Shown here one piece after another: positions 96 through 29,713 of a stretch of 36,457 bases of DNA. The stretch is from a virus. Under the pieces are notes generated by a model. The model was not told the origin of the DNA and searched no databases. It saw only the letters and a list, made by a program, of their open reading frames with translations. The stretch's first letter is position 1, and the number at the start of each line of letters is the position of its first letter. Both the position numbers and the translations under genes were made by a program. The stretch lies in the IMG/VR virus record IMGVR_UViG_3300045988_175898, one strand, 5' to 3'.

Positions 96-230
96 GGTTT
101 TGAGTTTTAAGGTTATGAGGTTATAATGTCACCTCTGCTTGCCCAAACTCTTAAAGGTTACTTTATAACCTCATAACCTCAAAACTCAAAACTCAAAACT
201 TTATAAACTTAAAACTATATCCCCACCATC
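96..230. repeat. IPE-1: intergenic palindromic element, T-type core in forward orientation, variant arms
   Basis: Core ACCTCTGCTTGCCCAAACTCTTAAAGG at 131-157. The arms are GTTTTGAGTTTTAAGGTTATGAGGTTATAA and TTATAACCTCATAACCTCAAAACTCAAAAC. They differ from the other copies but remain mutually complementary. Confidence 0.85.
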
Positions 231-10653: not shown

Positions 10654-10769
10654 TGAGTTGAAAAGTTTAAGAGTTGAAAAGTTAAGAAGTTACCTCTGCT
10701 TGCTCAACTCTTAAAGGCGTTCTCCTAACTTTTCAACTCATCAACTTATAAACTTTAATCCCCTCCCCC
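10654..10769. repeat. IPE-7: T-type core, forward
   Basis: ACCTCTGCTTGCTCAACTCTTAAAGG at 10692-10717. Confidence 0.9.
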
Positions 10770-11180
10770 ATGATCACCCTCAAAGTAAGAGGCTTGAAAA
10801 ACTTCAAGCTCGACAAAAAGCAGTACTTCCCCCAGGTGGCCCCCACCACCCCCATCGGCCTTAACGACGTGGCCTCACAAATTGAGAAACAAAGCACCGT
10901 GAGCCTGGCCGACATCAAGGGCGTGCTCGACGCCCTGCAAGAAGTGGTGCTCGAAGCCATGGCCGACGGCTACTCCGTGCGCCTGGGCGACCTTGGCTCG
11001 TTCCGACTCACATGCACCACCACCCATGGCGAGGACGACCCAAAACTCGTCACCGCCAAGCAGGTAAAAAAGCTGCGTGTGCGCTTCACTCCTTCGGGTG
11101 CCATGCAGCAAAAGCTCGGCACGGCCGATGCACGCACCCGCAGCGTGACGTTCAGCAAGATAGCCACACCCGAGGCATAG
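10770..11180 (+). CDS. HU-like DNA-binding protein (Bacteroidota HU_HIG type)
   Basis: 136 aa. The segment QIEKQSTVSLADIKGVLDALQEVVLEAMADGYSVRLGDLGSFRLTC...VRFTPSGAMQ follows the pattern of Bacteroidales HU-domain proteins as I recall it. Confidence 0.65.
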   Translation: MITLKVRGLKNFKLDKKQYFPQVAPTTPIGLNDVASQIEKQSTVSLADIKGVLDALQEVVLEAMADGYSVRLGDLGSFRLTCTTTHGEDDPKLVTAKQVKKLRVRFTPSGAMQQKLGTADARTRSVTFSKIATPEA

Positions 11181-11181
11181 C

Positions 11182-11252
11182 AAAAACAGTTGTGCCGAAG
11201 AGAAAAAACAGTTGTGCCTGCGAGAAAAAACGCGCAGGCACAACCGAAAAAA
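11182..11252. repeat. 22-nt-phased A-tract / CAGTT repeat locus with a 12-bp hairpin (paralog of nt 1-75)
   Basis: AAAAACAGTTGTGCC occurs at 11182-11196 and 11204-11218. GTTGTGCCTGCG (11211-11222) pairs with CGCAGGCACAAC (11233-11244). A-tracts lie near 11182, 11203, 11224 and 11247. Confidence 0.85.
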
Positions 11253-11265
11253 GCGCGTAGTGAAG

Positions 11266-11400
11266 CCATGAAGTTGCCCAAGCTCTAATGGGGGCGACGC
11301 GTCCCGCGCCGGGAAAAAGATGCAGCCATGGCTTCACACCCTCCCGCCCATCACCGACGCGGGACGCGTCGCCCCCATTAGAGCTTGGGCAACTTCATGG
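11266..11400. repeat. perfect 43-bp inverted repeat with a 49-nt spacer
   Basis: 11266-11308 is the exact reverse complement of 11358-11400. A competing pairing exists between GTGAAGCCATG (11260-11270) and CATGGCTTCAC (11327-11337). Confidence 0.9.
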
Positions 11401-11457
11401 TCTCTAAAAGCGACCTCTTAACTTCTAAATTTTTCAACTCATCAACTCAAAACCCCC
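11401..11457. repeat. IPE-8: core-less right arm only
   Basis: TCTCTAAAAGCGACCTCTTAACTTCTAAATTTTTCAACTCATCAAC. There is no ACCTCTGC core and no left arm. Confidence 0.7.
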
Positions 11458-12834
11458 ATGAACATATCCCCCCTCCTCTCCACGGCCACCACCATACGCT
11501 ACGAGAAGGCACGCTACGCCAACACCGCCGAACGTGTGGGCTCACTGCTCTACAACATGTGCCAGGCCATGGCCGACACCGATGCCACCGCATCGGCCGC
11601 CAACACCATAGCGCAGGGCCTGAACCAGTGGCTCACCACCCACGACAACCTGACCACCCTCGACGCCCTGAACGCCGCGCTCGACGCCATGAACGTGGAC
11701 TCCCCCCAGGGCCTGCACTGCTTCAAGTGCCTCGGCATACCGGTGCTCACCTACTTCGGCGTGCTCGTGAAGGACACCAAGCGCTATGTGCAGATAGCGG
11801 TGGGGGCTTTCACCCTCAACTCGCATGGCACCGCGCTGGCCTCGATCAACGACACAGCATCAACGCGCAACGTGATAGTGCGCTACTTTAACGGCACCAA
11901 GTGGCAGGCATGGCAGCCCCTGCAGCCGCAAAAGCAAACGTCGTACTCGGGCTTCAACGGCAACTATGTATACTCCGAAGGCACGACCGACAACACGCGC
12001 ACCATACTGAGCAGCAAAATGTGGACTTATACACACACCGACCGCAACTTGTTTTTACGCTTCAAGCACTGGGGCGCAGAGAACAACACTGATACAAGCC
12101 AATACAGTCAAGTGCTGCTATGCTATTTGGTGAACAGGAACCAAGACGGGCTGATGGATAAGTATGTGTTTGCCCGCATTCTGAATAACAATCTTGCAGA
12201 AGGGCTGAGCACTACGGACAGCGTAATTGTTAACTACACAAACTTTGCCGATAGTGGCAACAAGCAACTTGTACTCACCAAGGCCACAAGCGCCAAGGCG
12301 GGCGTCATGACGGCCGCACAGGCCACGCAGCTGAGTGCGCTGGACGAAGGCATAAAGCAAGTGAGCCTGAACGGCGGCAAAAAGTGGGAGTTCCGCACCC
12401 TCGGGGGCGAAAAGGTGTTGGAAACGCTCTCCGACGTAATGGGCGAGGAGGTAAGCCACTCCGACTTCGAGAACGCCGAACTCGCCACCTACATGGAGGG
12501 CAACCCCATCGAGGTGTACCAAACGCAGGGTGCCTACGGTGTGCCCGCACAAAAGTACATGATATGGTTCGGCCACCGCATCAAGGGCGCCAGCGGCGCC
12601 AGCGGCACACTGCAGCGCTACGACTTCAAGACCATTGCCGGCATGGAGCCGCTCGCGTTGTACAACAGAGTGACACAGGGCACCGCGATGCACTTCTGGA
12701 CTCTGACCAATGGCCATGCCATTGCCTACAAAGGCTCGGGGGGCCTCACGGCGCAACTGAGAACCGCGCCCTACATCATGAACACCGACGACAAGGCATT
12801 GCTCGAAAAGTTGAGAGGGCAGTTGAAAAGTTGA
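11458..12834 (+). CDS. hypothetical virion-module protein (function unassigned)
   Basis: 458-aa ORF between IPE-8 and IPE-9. Confidence 0.5.
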   Translation: MNISPLLSTATTIRYEKARYANTAERVGSLLYNMCQAMADTDATASAANTIAQGLNQWLTTHDNLTTLDALNAALDAMNVDSPQGLHCFKCLGIPVLTYFGVLVKDTKRYVQIAVGAFTLNSHGTALASINDTASTRNVIVRYFNGTKWQAWQPLQPQKQTSYSGFNGNYVYSEGTTDNTRTILSSKMWTYTHTDRNLFLRFKHWGAENNTDTSQYSQVLLCYLVNRNQDGLMDKYVFARILNNNLAEGLSTTDSVIVNYTNFADSGNKQLVLTKATSAKAGVMTAAQATQLSALDEGIKQVSLNGGKKWEFRTLGGEKVLETLSDVMGEEVSHSDFENAELATYMEGNPIEVYQTQGAYGVPAQKYMIWFGHRIKGASGASGTLQRYDFKTIAGMEPLALYNRVTQGTAMHFWTLTNGHAIAYKGSGGLTAQLRTAPYIMNTDDKALLEKLRGQLKS

Positions 12835-13788: not shown

Positions 13789-14267
13789 CCCACACCCCAC
13801 ACCCCAACCCATTAAGGCGGCTTACACTCGTAACCCTTGGCCGCGTGGCCACCATGGCGGCCCTGCTCGCCCTGCTTGCCTTCACGGCCACAAGTTGCCG
13901 CCAAGTGCACTACATCACCACCAACCGCACCACCCACACCACCGACACGGTGGAGCGCTGGCACGTGAGGCTCGACTCTGTGCTCGTGGCCGACTCGGTG
14001 AGCCTCACTCAGTGGCAGCGGGACGACACCGTATATGTCGAAAAAACGCGCCTCAAAATTCGTAACCGTGTAACTCTGCAGCACGACACGCTGTGGCGCA
14101 CTGCCATCAGGCACGACACCATCAGCACCGAGGCCAAGCCCGCCAAGGCCGGCACGGGGGGCGGAATTCTACAAAATCGGTCGAATTTTGCCAACACCCT
14201 CAAACTGCTCATCGTACTGGCGGCGCTCGTGTTGCTCTGCGTGTATATGAAGAAACGCAAGCTCTAA
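13785..14267 (+). CDS. unimolecular-spanin-like lipoprotein (N-terminal lipobox plus C-terminal TM helix)
   Basis: The ORF track frame begins at 13746. I prefer the ATG at 13785, which overlaps the amidase stop (ATGA). It has a lipobox-like LLAFTATSC and a C-terminal LKLLIVLAALVLLCVYMKKRKL. Confidence 0.5.
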   Translation: MTHTPHPNPLRRLTLVTLGRVATMAALLALLAFTATSCRQVHYITTNRTTHTTDTVERWHVRLDSVLVADSVSLTQWQRDDTVYVEKTRLKIRNRVTLQHDTLWRTAIRHDTISTEAKPAKAGTGGGILQNRSNFANTLKLLIVLAALVLLCVYMKKRKL

Positions 14268-14437
14268 TGGGGGCGTTTGGGTGAAAGTTGATAAGTTTAG
14301 AAGTTGAAAAGTTAAGAAGATACCTCTGCTTGCTCAACTCTTAAAAGCGACCTCTTAACTTTTCAACTCATCAACTCCTCAACTCTTAAAAGCGCCCTCT
14401 TAACTTTTCAACTCCTCAACTTATAAACTTAAAACTC
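14268..14437. repeat. IPE-11: T-type core, forward
   Basis: ACCTCTGCTTGCTCAACTCTTAAAAG at 14322-14347. There are two tandem right arms of the form (AAAAGCG[A/C]CCTCTTAACTTTTCAACTC). Confidence 0.9.
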
Positions 14438-28420: not shown

Positions 28421-29713
28421 ATGGCATACAAAATAAAATGGTATCTGGATTTGAGACGCACAAGCACTGAGGGCAAAGGGCGGCTATACATGGTGATATA
28501 CAACAATGGTACGGCGGCGCAAATTGCCACCGGGCTGATGCTGCATAAGAATGAATTTGAAGCCGGCAAGGTGGTGGGCGTGCCTATGGCCGGAAAACTG
28601 ACGCAAATGCTCGGTATTAAAAGGGCTAAGCTGCAGCTTGATATTGAAGAACTTGCTGTGGGCGGGTACGAGGTGGACAAGATGAAAGCGGCGGAGATTA
28701 AAAAGGCTGTGCTGGCTAAACGCGGGAATGATGACGAGGAAGGGAACGGCGAAGGTAAAGGGACCAGGAATGAGACGGCGTTTGGCACGTTTGCCGAGAA
28801 GTTTATAGCCCGAAGGGGCAAGGAGAAAACAAGGCAGGTGTATGAAATGACGCTGCGCAAGATGGGGGGATACTGTGATGTGGGGCGCCTGAGGTTTGCG
28901 GACATCAGTGTGGGGTGGCTGCGAGACTTTGAGCAGTGGCTGGGGGCGACGTGCAGCGTGAACACGCGGGGCATTCATTTGCGCAACATTCGCGCGGTGA
29001 TGAATGCGGCTATTGATGAGGGGGTGGTGCCGGCTGACTTGTACCCTTTCAGACGGTTTAAGATTAAGAAGGAGGAGACGATGAAGCGGTCGCTCTCGGT
29101 GGGTGACTTGAGGCGGCTGAGGGATTACCCGTGTGAGGGGTGGCAGCGGAAGTATGTTGATGTGTTTATGCTGTCGTTCTACCTGGCGGGTATTAACTTG
29201 GTGGACTTGATGGGGCTGCCGCCGTTGGGGGCGGACGGTGTCATAAGGTACAGGAGGAGCAAGACGGGGGTGCTGTGCCAGCTGTCGGTGCCGCCTGAGG
29301 CCCGGGCTATTATTGAGCGTTACAAGGGGGAGCGGCATTTGCTGTGGTTTGGGGAGCGGCTGAAGCCTGGCGCGGAGGGGTGGCATGACTGGCTGCACAG
29401 GTTTAACGAGGGGTTGCAGAAGGTGGGGCCGTCGGGTTATATGTATGTGCGCCGCAAGGGGCAGTGTGGCGGCAAGCAGCGGGTGAAGGTGTATAATGCT
29501 TTGTTTCCGGAACTTACATCGTACTGGGCGCGGCACACGTGGGCTACGCTGGCGGCTGAAATTGATGTGCCTGACGCGGTGATTGATGCTGCGCTGGGGC
29601 ACAGGTCGGTGTGCCGCATGGCGGACATATACATAAGGCGTGATGCGCGCAAGGTGGACGAGGCGGTGAGGCGGGTGATTGAGTATGTGAATGGCGGGGC
29701 AGATGGGAGTTGA
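28421..29713 (+). CDS. int: tyrosine integrase (Bacteroidales phage-integrase type with N-terminal arm-binding region)
   Basis: 430 aa. The C-terminal catalytic pattern is ARHTWAT...LGHRS...ADIYIRR (R, H-x-x-R, Y). The N-terminus is KIKWYLDLRR...GRLYMVI. The gene lies adjacent to the tRNA fragment. Confidence 0.9.
   Translation: MAYKIKWYLDLRRTSTEGKGRLYMVIYNNGTAAQIATGLMLHKNEFEAGKVVGVPMAGKLTQMLGIKRAKLQLDIEELAVGGYEVDKMKAAEIKKAVLAKRGNDDEEGNGEGKGTRNETAFGTFAEKFIARRGKEKTRQVYEMTLRKMGGYCDVGRLRFADISVGWLRDFEQWLGATCSVNTRGIHLRNIRAVMNAAIDEGVVPADLYPFRRFKIKKEETMKRSLSVGDLRRLRDYPCEGWQRKYVDVFMLSFYLAGINLVDLMGLPPLGADGVIRYRRSKTGVLCQLSVPPEARAIIERYKGERHLLWFGERLKPGAEGWHDWLHRFNEGLQKVGPSGYMYVRRKGQCGGKQRVKVYNALFPELTSYWARHTWATLAAEIDVPDAVIDAALGHRSVCRMADIYIRRDARKVDEAVRRVIEYVNGGADGS

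Follow-up and report, generated by a model that had tools for sequence, protein, structure and literature searches.

The long inverted repeat of a Bacteroidota-type temperate phage is very probably a repetitive extragenic palindrome doublet of its likely host, Prevotellamassilia timonensis

A long inverted repeat in a phage genome raises the question of whether it is a signal that serves the phage or a sequence that merely resides there. We analyzed such a repeat in IMG/VR record IMGVR_UViG_3300045988_175898, a 36,457-nt stretch of DNA (referred to over its whole length as the window) from a temperate phage of Bacteroidota type with its genes on the + strand. The element is 135 bp long and sits between two genes of the same orientation, one ending at 11180 and the next starting at 11458. 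A repeat search of the window returned two arms of 47 nt each that are 98% complementary and 41 nt apart (Table 1). A preliminary description had claimed an exact inverted repeat of 43 bp, and its coordinates (11266-11308 with 11358-11400) are right; inward of this perfect part, a C·A mismatch (11309 C opposite 11357 A) is followed by three further pairs. We conclude that the element is very probably a doublet of repetitive extragenic palindrome (REP) units, of the kind known as REPINs (REP doublets forming hairpins) or BIMEs (bacterial interspersed mosaic elements), that belongs to the repeat family of the likely host, P. timonensis, and is a passenger in the temperate phage.

Each arm contains the 18-mer CAAGCTCTAATGGGGGCG, which the window holds at 11279 (+), 11370 (-) and 14258 (+), three matches where 0.01 are expected. 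A search with a 21-mer of the arm (CTCTAATGGGGGCGACGCGTC) matched more than 120 bacterial genome stretches, a lower bound among the matches listed, and nearly all of these are from P. timonensis Marseille-P2831T. In the 3.5-Mb P. timonensis genome (G002), the 18-mer core occurs 512 times at up to two mismatches, 258 times forward and 254 times reverse, against one occurrence of a reversed control pattern, and it was found in none of 150 other sampled genomes of the same family. Variants of the unit reach 125-169 copies in just 3 of 60 sampled congeners, with a handful in a few others. The head of the unit in those three congeners is TACTGGGGG or AATTGGGGG instead of TAATGGGGG, and the phage has the P. 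timonensis head. Since the TAATGGGGG head is abundant only in P. timonensis among the genomes searched, this species is the likely host. Because about 500 copies reside in the host chromosome, we read the phage repeat as a hitch-hiking host repeat and not as a purpose-built phage signal.

The host copies share a well-defined unit and a characteristic arrangement. Alignment of 406 distinct host copies from -15 to +24 around the core gave a conserved unit of ~40 nt (AAACGCWASCWCTAATGGGGGCGACGCGTCYCGCGTCGG), and each unit contains its own hairpin, CGACGCG-TCY-CGCGTCG, with a 7-bp stem and a 3-nt loop. The left arm of the phage element agrees with this consensus at 33 of 34 positions and the right arm at 34 of 34 (from CAAGCTC inwards); the one departure, C11309, falls on a T that is 92% conserved and disrupts both the long stem and the small hairpin of the left unit. 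Neighboring cores at most 300 nt apart in G002 form 165 convergent, 61 divergent and 8 same-strand pairs, and their spacing peaks at 80-90 nt (74 in the phage copy). When no more than one mismatch was tolerated on either side of the core, host arms have a median length of 34 nt; with arms of at least 45 nt in 21 of the 165 convergent pairs, the 47-nt arm of the phage is long but unexceptional for the family. Only 37 of 377 host cores (10%) lie inside open frames of at least 150 codons, whereas such frames cover 74% of sampled DNA. Solo units and tandem doublet clusters with a 249-nt period are also found in the host, and many outer flanks consist of a 13-nt unit, AAACGCTACCACC, repeated in tandem. 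The family fills intergenic spaces in P. timonensis and a few sister species.

Two side observations concern the host family. Tandem arrays of four to five doublets (L066:1009-2163 and L025) are joined by a conserved 60-nt linker that begins TTGACAGGTTAAAAAGCGGATTTGAAGCCATGTAAAG and recurs at other loci; when the left flank of the phage element (TGAAGCCATG, CAGTTGTGCC) was compared with this linker, the order of motifs differed, and among the G002 matches listed none spans window 11189-11278. In addition, two contigs binned as "Oscillibacter sp." and "Clostridia bacterium" (L035 and L048, H07640-L1 bins) carry exact copies of the repeat with typical flanks, and from their sequence they are probably mis-binned Prevotellamassilia contigs.

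The host genome also encodes a candidate enzyme for the family. G002 contains a single Y1 transposase match (PF01797 at 32-33 bits, cut-off 23), a protein of 206 aa encoded on the minus strand at L139:1399-2019. Its best NCBIfam family is that of the REP-associated tyrosine transposases (RAYTs; NF047646, REP_Tyr_transpos), with IS200 at 29.4 bits. Five doublets flank the gene within 58-482 nt, two of them to one side and three to the other, and the nearest are 58 and 69 nt away. Six orthologues in the genus keep the motifs NHVH, WQ and YIA(R/Q/K)NP, and a profile built from the six has E. coli TnpArep (4ER8) as its best PDB match, aligning these motifs; a PDB search with the RAYT-like protein as a single sequence found nothing. 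Repeat variants of the respective species lie on either side of the orthologue in G179 and in G199 and to one side of it in G159 and in G173; for the G168 orthologue, no flanking repeat was found at up to one mismatch. The 61 genomes examined in the genus comprise 8 that have both the repeat and the transposase, 1 that has the repeat only, 3 that have the transposase only and 49 that have neither, a co-occurrence with a Fisher p of 5e-7 in which related species are not independent samples. The window itself yielded no RAYT by tblastn (best E-value 0.71), and the doublets are carried as passengers because the phage is without a transposase for them. The repeat family is presumed to be the substrate of the host HUH tyrosine transposase and not of a phage enzyme, and in this sense the earlier suggestion of a recombinase target would be loosely right, with the host RAYT as presumed recombinase and no phage enzyme involved.

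With a hairpin unit in more than 100 lineage-specific copies, placed outside genes, mostly in inverted doublets and flanking a single RAYT-like gene, the host family fits the description of REP repeats. REPINs with RAYT transposases in Pseudomonas fluorescens SBW25 and BIMEs with TnpA_REP in E. coli are the closest known systems, and there RAYTs are described as absent from horizontally transferred elements and REPINs as inherited almost exclusively vertically (PMC3116915, PMC2817692, PMC3479197, bioRxiv 10.1101/2021.07.10.451892). The host family resembles them in its short hairpin unit and in its hundreds of intergenic copies, most of which are spaced inverted pairs and some of which form tandem clusters. 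As in those systems, the repeats flank a single-copy gene for an HUH tyrosine transposase, and their variants differ between species in step with the transposase. For REPs and RAYTs, such a layout has been described as a REPtron (PMC2817692, PMC3116915). The host family differs in that (i) the host is a gut anaerobe of the Bacteroidota, (ii) the unit has a TAATGGGGG head and no GTAG, with a 7-bp stem and a 3-nt loop, (iii) the outer arms consist of 13-nt tandem units and (iv) the copy studied here is in a phage genome.

Two further comparisons bear on the placement. A GTAG or CGTC tag marks one end of REP units, and the CGTC families have 8-9-bp stems that start with A/T pairs, loops of 4-5 nt and no associated transposase (Di Nocera 2013, PMC3733652). 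The stem of the host unit ends in CGTCG, but the description of the CGTC families does not fit it: it has 7 bp and a 3-nt loop, and a transposase gene is associated with the family. Among the TnpA_REP proteins, subclasses 2.4, 2.6 and 2.7 include Bacteroidetes members (Quentin et al. 2018, PMC6006769). Like these, the host protein has NHVH (HUH), WQ and YIxxNP motifs, and its gene has at its flanks secondary-structure repeats of which further copies lie elsewhere in the genome; its Y motif, YIARNP, however, is not an exact match to any of the three published consensus strings. A REP/RAYT system with ~500 copies per genome in this genus of gut Bacteroidota seems to be undescribed.

Relatives of the phage include both filled sites and sites without the doublet. 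Upstream of the repeat lie the gene for an HU-HIG family DNA-binding protein and a set of A-tract units, and downstream lies what is left of IPE-8, one of the AT-rich intergenic palindromes (IPEs) of this phage (Table 1). The same doublet, in the same place and with the same 13-nt outer extension, is present in three IMG/VR relatives (L009, L010 and L012) and in a metagenome contig (L178); L014 and L015, which also have it, come from other parts of the L010 and L012 contigs. These relatives (L009, L010, L012 and L178) are ~85-92% identical to the window, and their doublet copies are nearly identical. L013 (IMG/VR contig 178118) leads from the HU-HIG gene through four A-tract units and a complete IPE to the same downstream gene, without the doublet; L018 and the prophage-like region G002:C13 have this order of gene, A-tract units and complete IPE too, again without a doublet. 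The nearest of the records compared, G001 (34.9 kb, with terminal repeats), is 92-96% identical on both sides and is without window positions 10755-11480, so that the repeat is missing together with the A-tract units and the HU-HIG gene. An origin hairpin, a resolvase site or a dedicated processing signal, as had been proposed, is thus not supported: the unit occurs ~500 times in a bacterial chromosome and is missing in relatives with the same neighbor genes. Neither the region nor the 135-nt element had a match among GenBank phages, searched in near and distant modes, or among the plasmids of PLSDB.

Alignment of filled with empty sites (window and L010 with L013) showed that the doublet and its outer 13 nt replace ~54 nt, namely the end of the last A-tract unit and the left arm and core of the IPE, after which the sequences resume together at CCTCTAAAA, within the right half of the IPE. 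The earlier claim that the repeat had taken the place of the left arm and core of IPE-8 is thereby borne out, since relatives have a complete IPE at the same place. No target-site duplication was found in this alignment. The left outer 13 nt (CCATGAAGTTGCC) resemble the IPE sequence TTATGAAGTCACC at the empty site in L013, and from this resemblance part of the target appears to have been copied in inverted form to the other side.

Table 1. Positions of the repeat, its parts and its neighbors in the window
Feature	Position	Strand	Remarks
HU-HIG family DNA-binding protein gene	10770-11180	+	PF18291, 88.6 bits; PHROG 379; ends 86 nt before the repeat
A-tract units, 22-nt period, cores CAGTTGTGCC and GGCACAAC	11179-11265	+	Last unit truncated by the doublet
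Alternative stem, 5' half (GTGAAGCCATG)	11260-11270	+	Pairs with 11327-11337
Left arm	11266-11312	+	Inner part 11279-11312 (CAAGCTCTAATGGGGGCGACGCGTCCCGCGCCGG) is one forward REP unit
Outer extension of left arm (CCATGAAGTTGCC, 13 nt)	11266-11278	+	Outside the host consensus
Loop/spacer	11313-11353	+	Both ends like the commonest host loop class, GGGAAAAGATGCAGC...CCTCC...ATC(C)CCGACGCG
Alternative stem, 3' half (CATGGCTTCAC)	11327-11337	+	Within the loop
Right arm	11354-11400	-	Inverted REP unit 11354-11387 plus inverted 13-nt extension 11388-11400
Surviving right arm of IPE-8 (AT-rich intergenic palindrome)	11401-11457	+	Counterpart in L013: right half of a complete IPE, by alignment
Stump of second REP doublet (AAACGCAAGCTCTAATGGGGGCG, 23 nt)	14253-14275	+	Complete doublet here in relatives

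The third occurrence of the 18-mer marks a second site of the same kind. Similarity there begins upstream of the 18-mer, at 14247 (ATGAAGnnnnnCAAGCTCTAATGGGGGCG), and complete second doublets, starting inside the last codons of the spanin-like gene, are present in L009, L010, L012 and L175. Since relatives have a complete doublet at this place, the 18-mer at 14258 is the stump of a collapsed one. The sharing of the 18-mer with the end of the spanin gene, as first noted, is real, but it is not a signal common to two sites. Close relatives therefore differ in presence or absence at two sites, and the suggestion that the long repeat is of recent origin was a fair one.

At this second site the repeat has become part of a gene. 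The spanin-like gene takes its last three codons (R, K and L) and its TAA stop (14265-14267) from the stump. With a doublet or a stump the gene ends in KKRKL* or KKRYH*, the last two codons falling in the variable hexamer of the unit and the stop being the TAA of CTAATGG; L178 has no repeat here, and its gene runs into an IPE and ends in KKVDKFRS*. Such use of the repeat is no general habit: its TAA ends an open frame of at least 100 codons in just 3 of 329 host copies, which makes the spanin case unusual. Both the window and G001 retain the stump followed directly by TTT, in two different right-hand contexts. The same collapse junction, GGGGGCG|TTT (TAATGGGGGCG|TTT), is found at 14270-14278 of the window, in G001 (L011 near 3572) and in one host copy (L101), and this recurrence would fit the footprint of a site-specific deletion or excision. 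Two obvious candidates could explain the junction: it may be a footprint of the transposase, or the short repeat GCG may have allowed slippage across the hairpin.

Could the doublet, although derived from the host, now serve the phage as an RNA element? Such a very stable hairpin, between the HU-HIG gene and the next late gene, might end, protect or process the transcript, for instance by offering RNase III a site or by blocking 3' exonucleases. We consider this unlikely, although it survives better than the other alternatives. The structure itself is in its favor: the 47-bp hairpin is encoded on the coding strand between two co-oriented genes, and the RNA of 11260-11406 folds at -108.5 kcal/mol (z = -14.2), with 0 of 200 shuffles as good. 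The same region folds as single-stranded DNA at -67 kcal/mol on the + strand, with z = -15.1, and at -69.4 kcal/mol on the - strand, with z of about -15, and again 0 of 200 shuffles are as good. In Rfam, the region gave only sub-threshold matches to microRNA precursors, which are drawn by any long hairpin, and four host loci gave none. The ending or processing of a transcript finds less support in the surroundings. A scan for sigma-70 promoters and intrinsic terminators called nothing at the doublet, and no T-run follows the stem; moreover, the HU-HIG gene already has a conserved 3' hairpin of 12 bp inside the A-tract units (11211-11222 with 11233-11244).

The preliminary description had added an alternative stem that would make the element a conformational switch. 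The stem is present as described, but the switch finds no support, since the long hairpin beats the alternative fold by ~70 kcal/mol. The alternative wins only in a stretch that stops short of the right arm (11258-11345, -36.3 kcal/mol, z = -3.3), and by this folding model it could be at most a transient intermediate of co-transcriptional folding.

Conservation of the doublet could also speak for an RNA element, as it is present in related contigs and is 96.6% identical between the window and L010. However, the conserved block extends from ~11020 to ~11440. Between the same two sequences, the HU-HIG gene is 75% identical overall, the next gene 75-91%, and positions 11020-11199 are 95-100% identical. 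High conservation was rejected as proof of selection, because it extends to the same degree into the 3' end of the HU-HIG gene; as the block is wider than the hairpin, it looks like a recently exchanged piece of the phage mosaic and not like selection on the stem. Two arm differences separate the window from its relatives. Both are C/T and in the left arm: at 11304 the T of the relatives lies opposite G and still pairs, as G·U in + strand RNA only, which would suit an RNA element, and at 11309 the consensus T lies opposite A, so that it is the window copy that is mismatched, at a highly conserved position. Two differences are too few to argue for selection at the RNA level. The second doublet, which in relatives begins at the stop region of the spanin-like gene, is a further point for an RNA role, and E. 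coli REPs at such a position lower translation of the upstream gene. Against it, L013 has both neighboring genes without the doublet, and G001 is without the whole module.

A classical miniature inverted-repeat transposable element (MITE), that is, a cut-down DDE-type transposon with terminal inverted repeats moved by an insertion sequence transposase and not by a RAYT, would also be of this size (135 bp), have long terminal inverted repeats and occur in many copies between genes. We regard this as very improbable. The filled and empty sites differ by replacement of sequence and not by a target-site duplication, and the conserved part of the element is the inner hairpin unit, whereas the outer ends vary and are made of 13-nt tandem units. 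Solo units, divergent pairs and tandem arrays with a 249-nt period are as in BIMEs, and the Y1 transposase gene, present in one copy, lies in the midst of the repeats and is found in the same genomes as they are. The Correia elements (NEMIS) of Neisseria are intergenic, ~100-150 bp long and have long inverted ends, and their hairpin transcripts are cut by RNase III, which alters expression of neighbors; they duplicate a TA target and are not known to be associated with a RAYT. The phage doublet is like them in size, intergenic position and long inverted ends and unlike them in having no target duplication.

Least probable of all is a DNA-level site of the phage, in which a cruciform or hairpin would act as a replication origin, a recombination site or a target of the HU-like protein: HU-family proteins favor distorted and cruciform DNA, and the doublet follows the HU-HIG gene by 86 nt beside phased A-tract repeats, but the gene and its A-tract repeats do without it in L013, L018 and the prophage-like region of G002, the unit occurs ~500 times in the host chromosome, and nothing like an initiator or resolvase gene adjoins it.

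Several points weigh against a passenger REP doublet, and they concern the insertion, its source and the enzyme. The filled site is not a clean insertion, as ~54 nt of the IPE region were replaced. Places in G002 align to window 11279-11387 at 74-79% identity, which is low over the whole element because the loops differ and too low to name a donor strain. The outer 13 nt (CCATGAAGTTGCC) lie outside the host consensus, and a metagenome scan with one 27-mer did not find a chromosomal copy that has them; its sole other exact match was a related phage contig (OIXA01000513.1, a 56-kb record). The host protein scores 69.5 bits against the curated cut-off of 80 for NF047646, for which reason we label it RAYT-like and not an equivalog, and the match of the orthologue profile to TnpArep is weak (E = 0.015). 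Finally, the doublet may have a selected role in the phage.

We nevertheless hold to a host REP doublet as the best account, and propose the following history. The chromosomal RAYT, an HUH enzyme that acts on single-stranded DNA and is sited among the repeats, presumably copies them. The phage most likely acquired the doublet while it was a resident prophage in such a host; the window encodes an integrase with a Phage_int_SAM_5 domain (28421-29713), along with a tail tape-measure-like protein and an amidase endolysin. One doublet would have landed in the core of the IPE downstream of the HU-HIG gene, with loss of the left half of that palindrome, and another at the end of the spanin-like gene, where in this genome it would later have collapsed to the 23-nt stump. 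In a late transcript, the first doublet would have to fold as a 47-bp RNA hairpin, which by analogy with E. coli REPs could stabilize or attenuate the mRNA or attract RNase III.

The surroundings of the doublet gave side observations of their own. Directly 3' of all HU-HIG genes examined are about four units of 22-nt period, each beginning with an A5-6 tract, in which the core appears as two direct copies and then two inverted copies (window 11179-11265; L013:3555-3660; L018:3420-3520; L155, reverse strand 2380-2270). The core sequence varies among relatives (CAGTTGTGCC, TATAGGCGA and ACATAGGGCGATAG). Its layout suggests an array of protein-binding sites that varies together with the HU-HIG gene or, alternatively, a conserved 3' hairpin. 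L155 (G002:C13:20001-40000), a prophage-like region of the P. timonensis chromosome that is full of IPEs, has on its reverse strand (3180-2360) two tandem HU-HIG genes 81-82% identical to that of the window, followed by an amidase gene.

In the window, the gene starting at 11458 comes right after the remaining arm of IPE-8. The IPEs are not limited to the phage: a query with IPE-1 (window 97-216, queried as 90-235) matched G002 42 times, G159 82 times and G168 110 times at 73-98% identity and had zero matches in G179. One host IPE copy is ~300 bp from the RAYT locus (G002:C15:259043-259149 is among the host places). By these matches, the IPEs may be a second interspersed repeat family common to host and phage.

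The REP unit is also present in other phage records. The 18-mer core was found in 23 stretches of ~19 IMG/VR contigs, of which ~15 have no nucleotide similarity to the window; many of these cores are deep inside contigs of 27-84 kb, and some contigs may include host flanks. No core was found in two related prophage-like regions, G002:C13:1-40000 and the 28.7-kb contig G168:C108. A stretch of 40 kb would be expected to hold 5.9 cores at host density, with a probability of 0.003 of holding none. A bolder possibility, which we offer tentatively and think improbable, is that temperate phages of Prevotellamassilia routinely ferry intact REP doublets between cells and so reseed REPINs, and that the phage also makes use of both repeats. 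If this were true, REPIN populations would be reseeded between strains or species with a compatible RAYT, and the phage would draw the stop and last residues of its spanin-like protein from one repeat and a 47-bp hairpin behind its HU-like gene from the other.

The striking palindrome thus has an ordinary explanation: it is from the REP family of the host itself, and a second, decayed copy is at the spanin-like gene. This removes the tempting reading of a long perfect phage palindrome as an origin, a resolvase site or a riboswitch-like switch, and it assigns a likely host to an uncultured phage. The spanin-like gene, whose last codons and stop come from the repeat, shows that such repeats can rewrite the 3' end of a gene. 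The doublet is also another case of REP repeats travelling in phage genomes, and as such it bears on the claim that REPINs are inherited only from mother to daughter cell.

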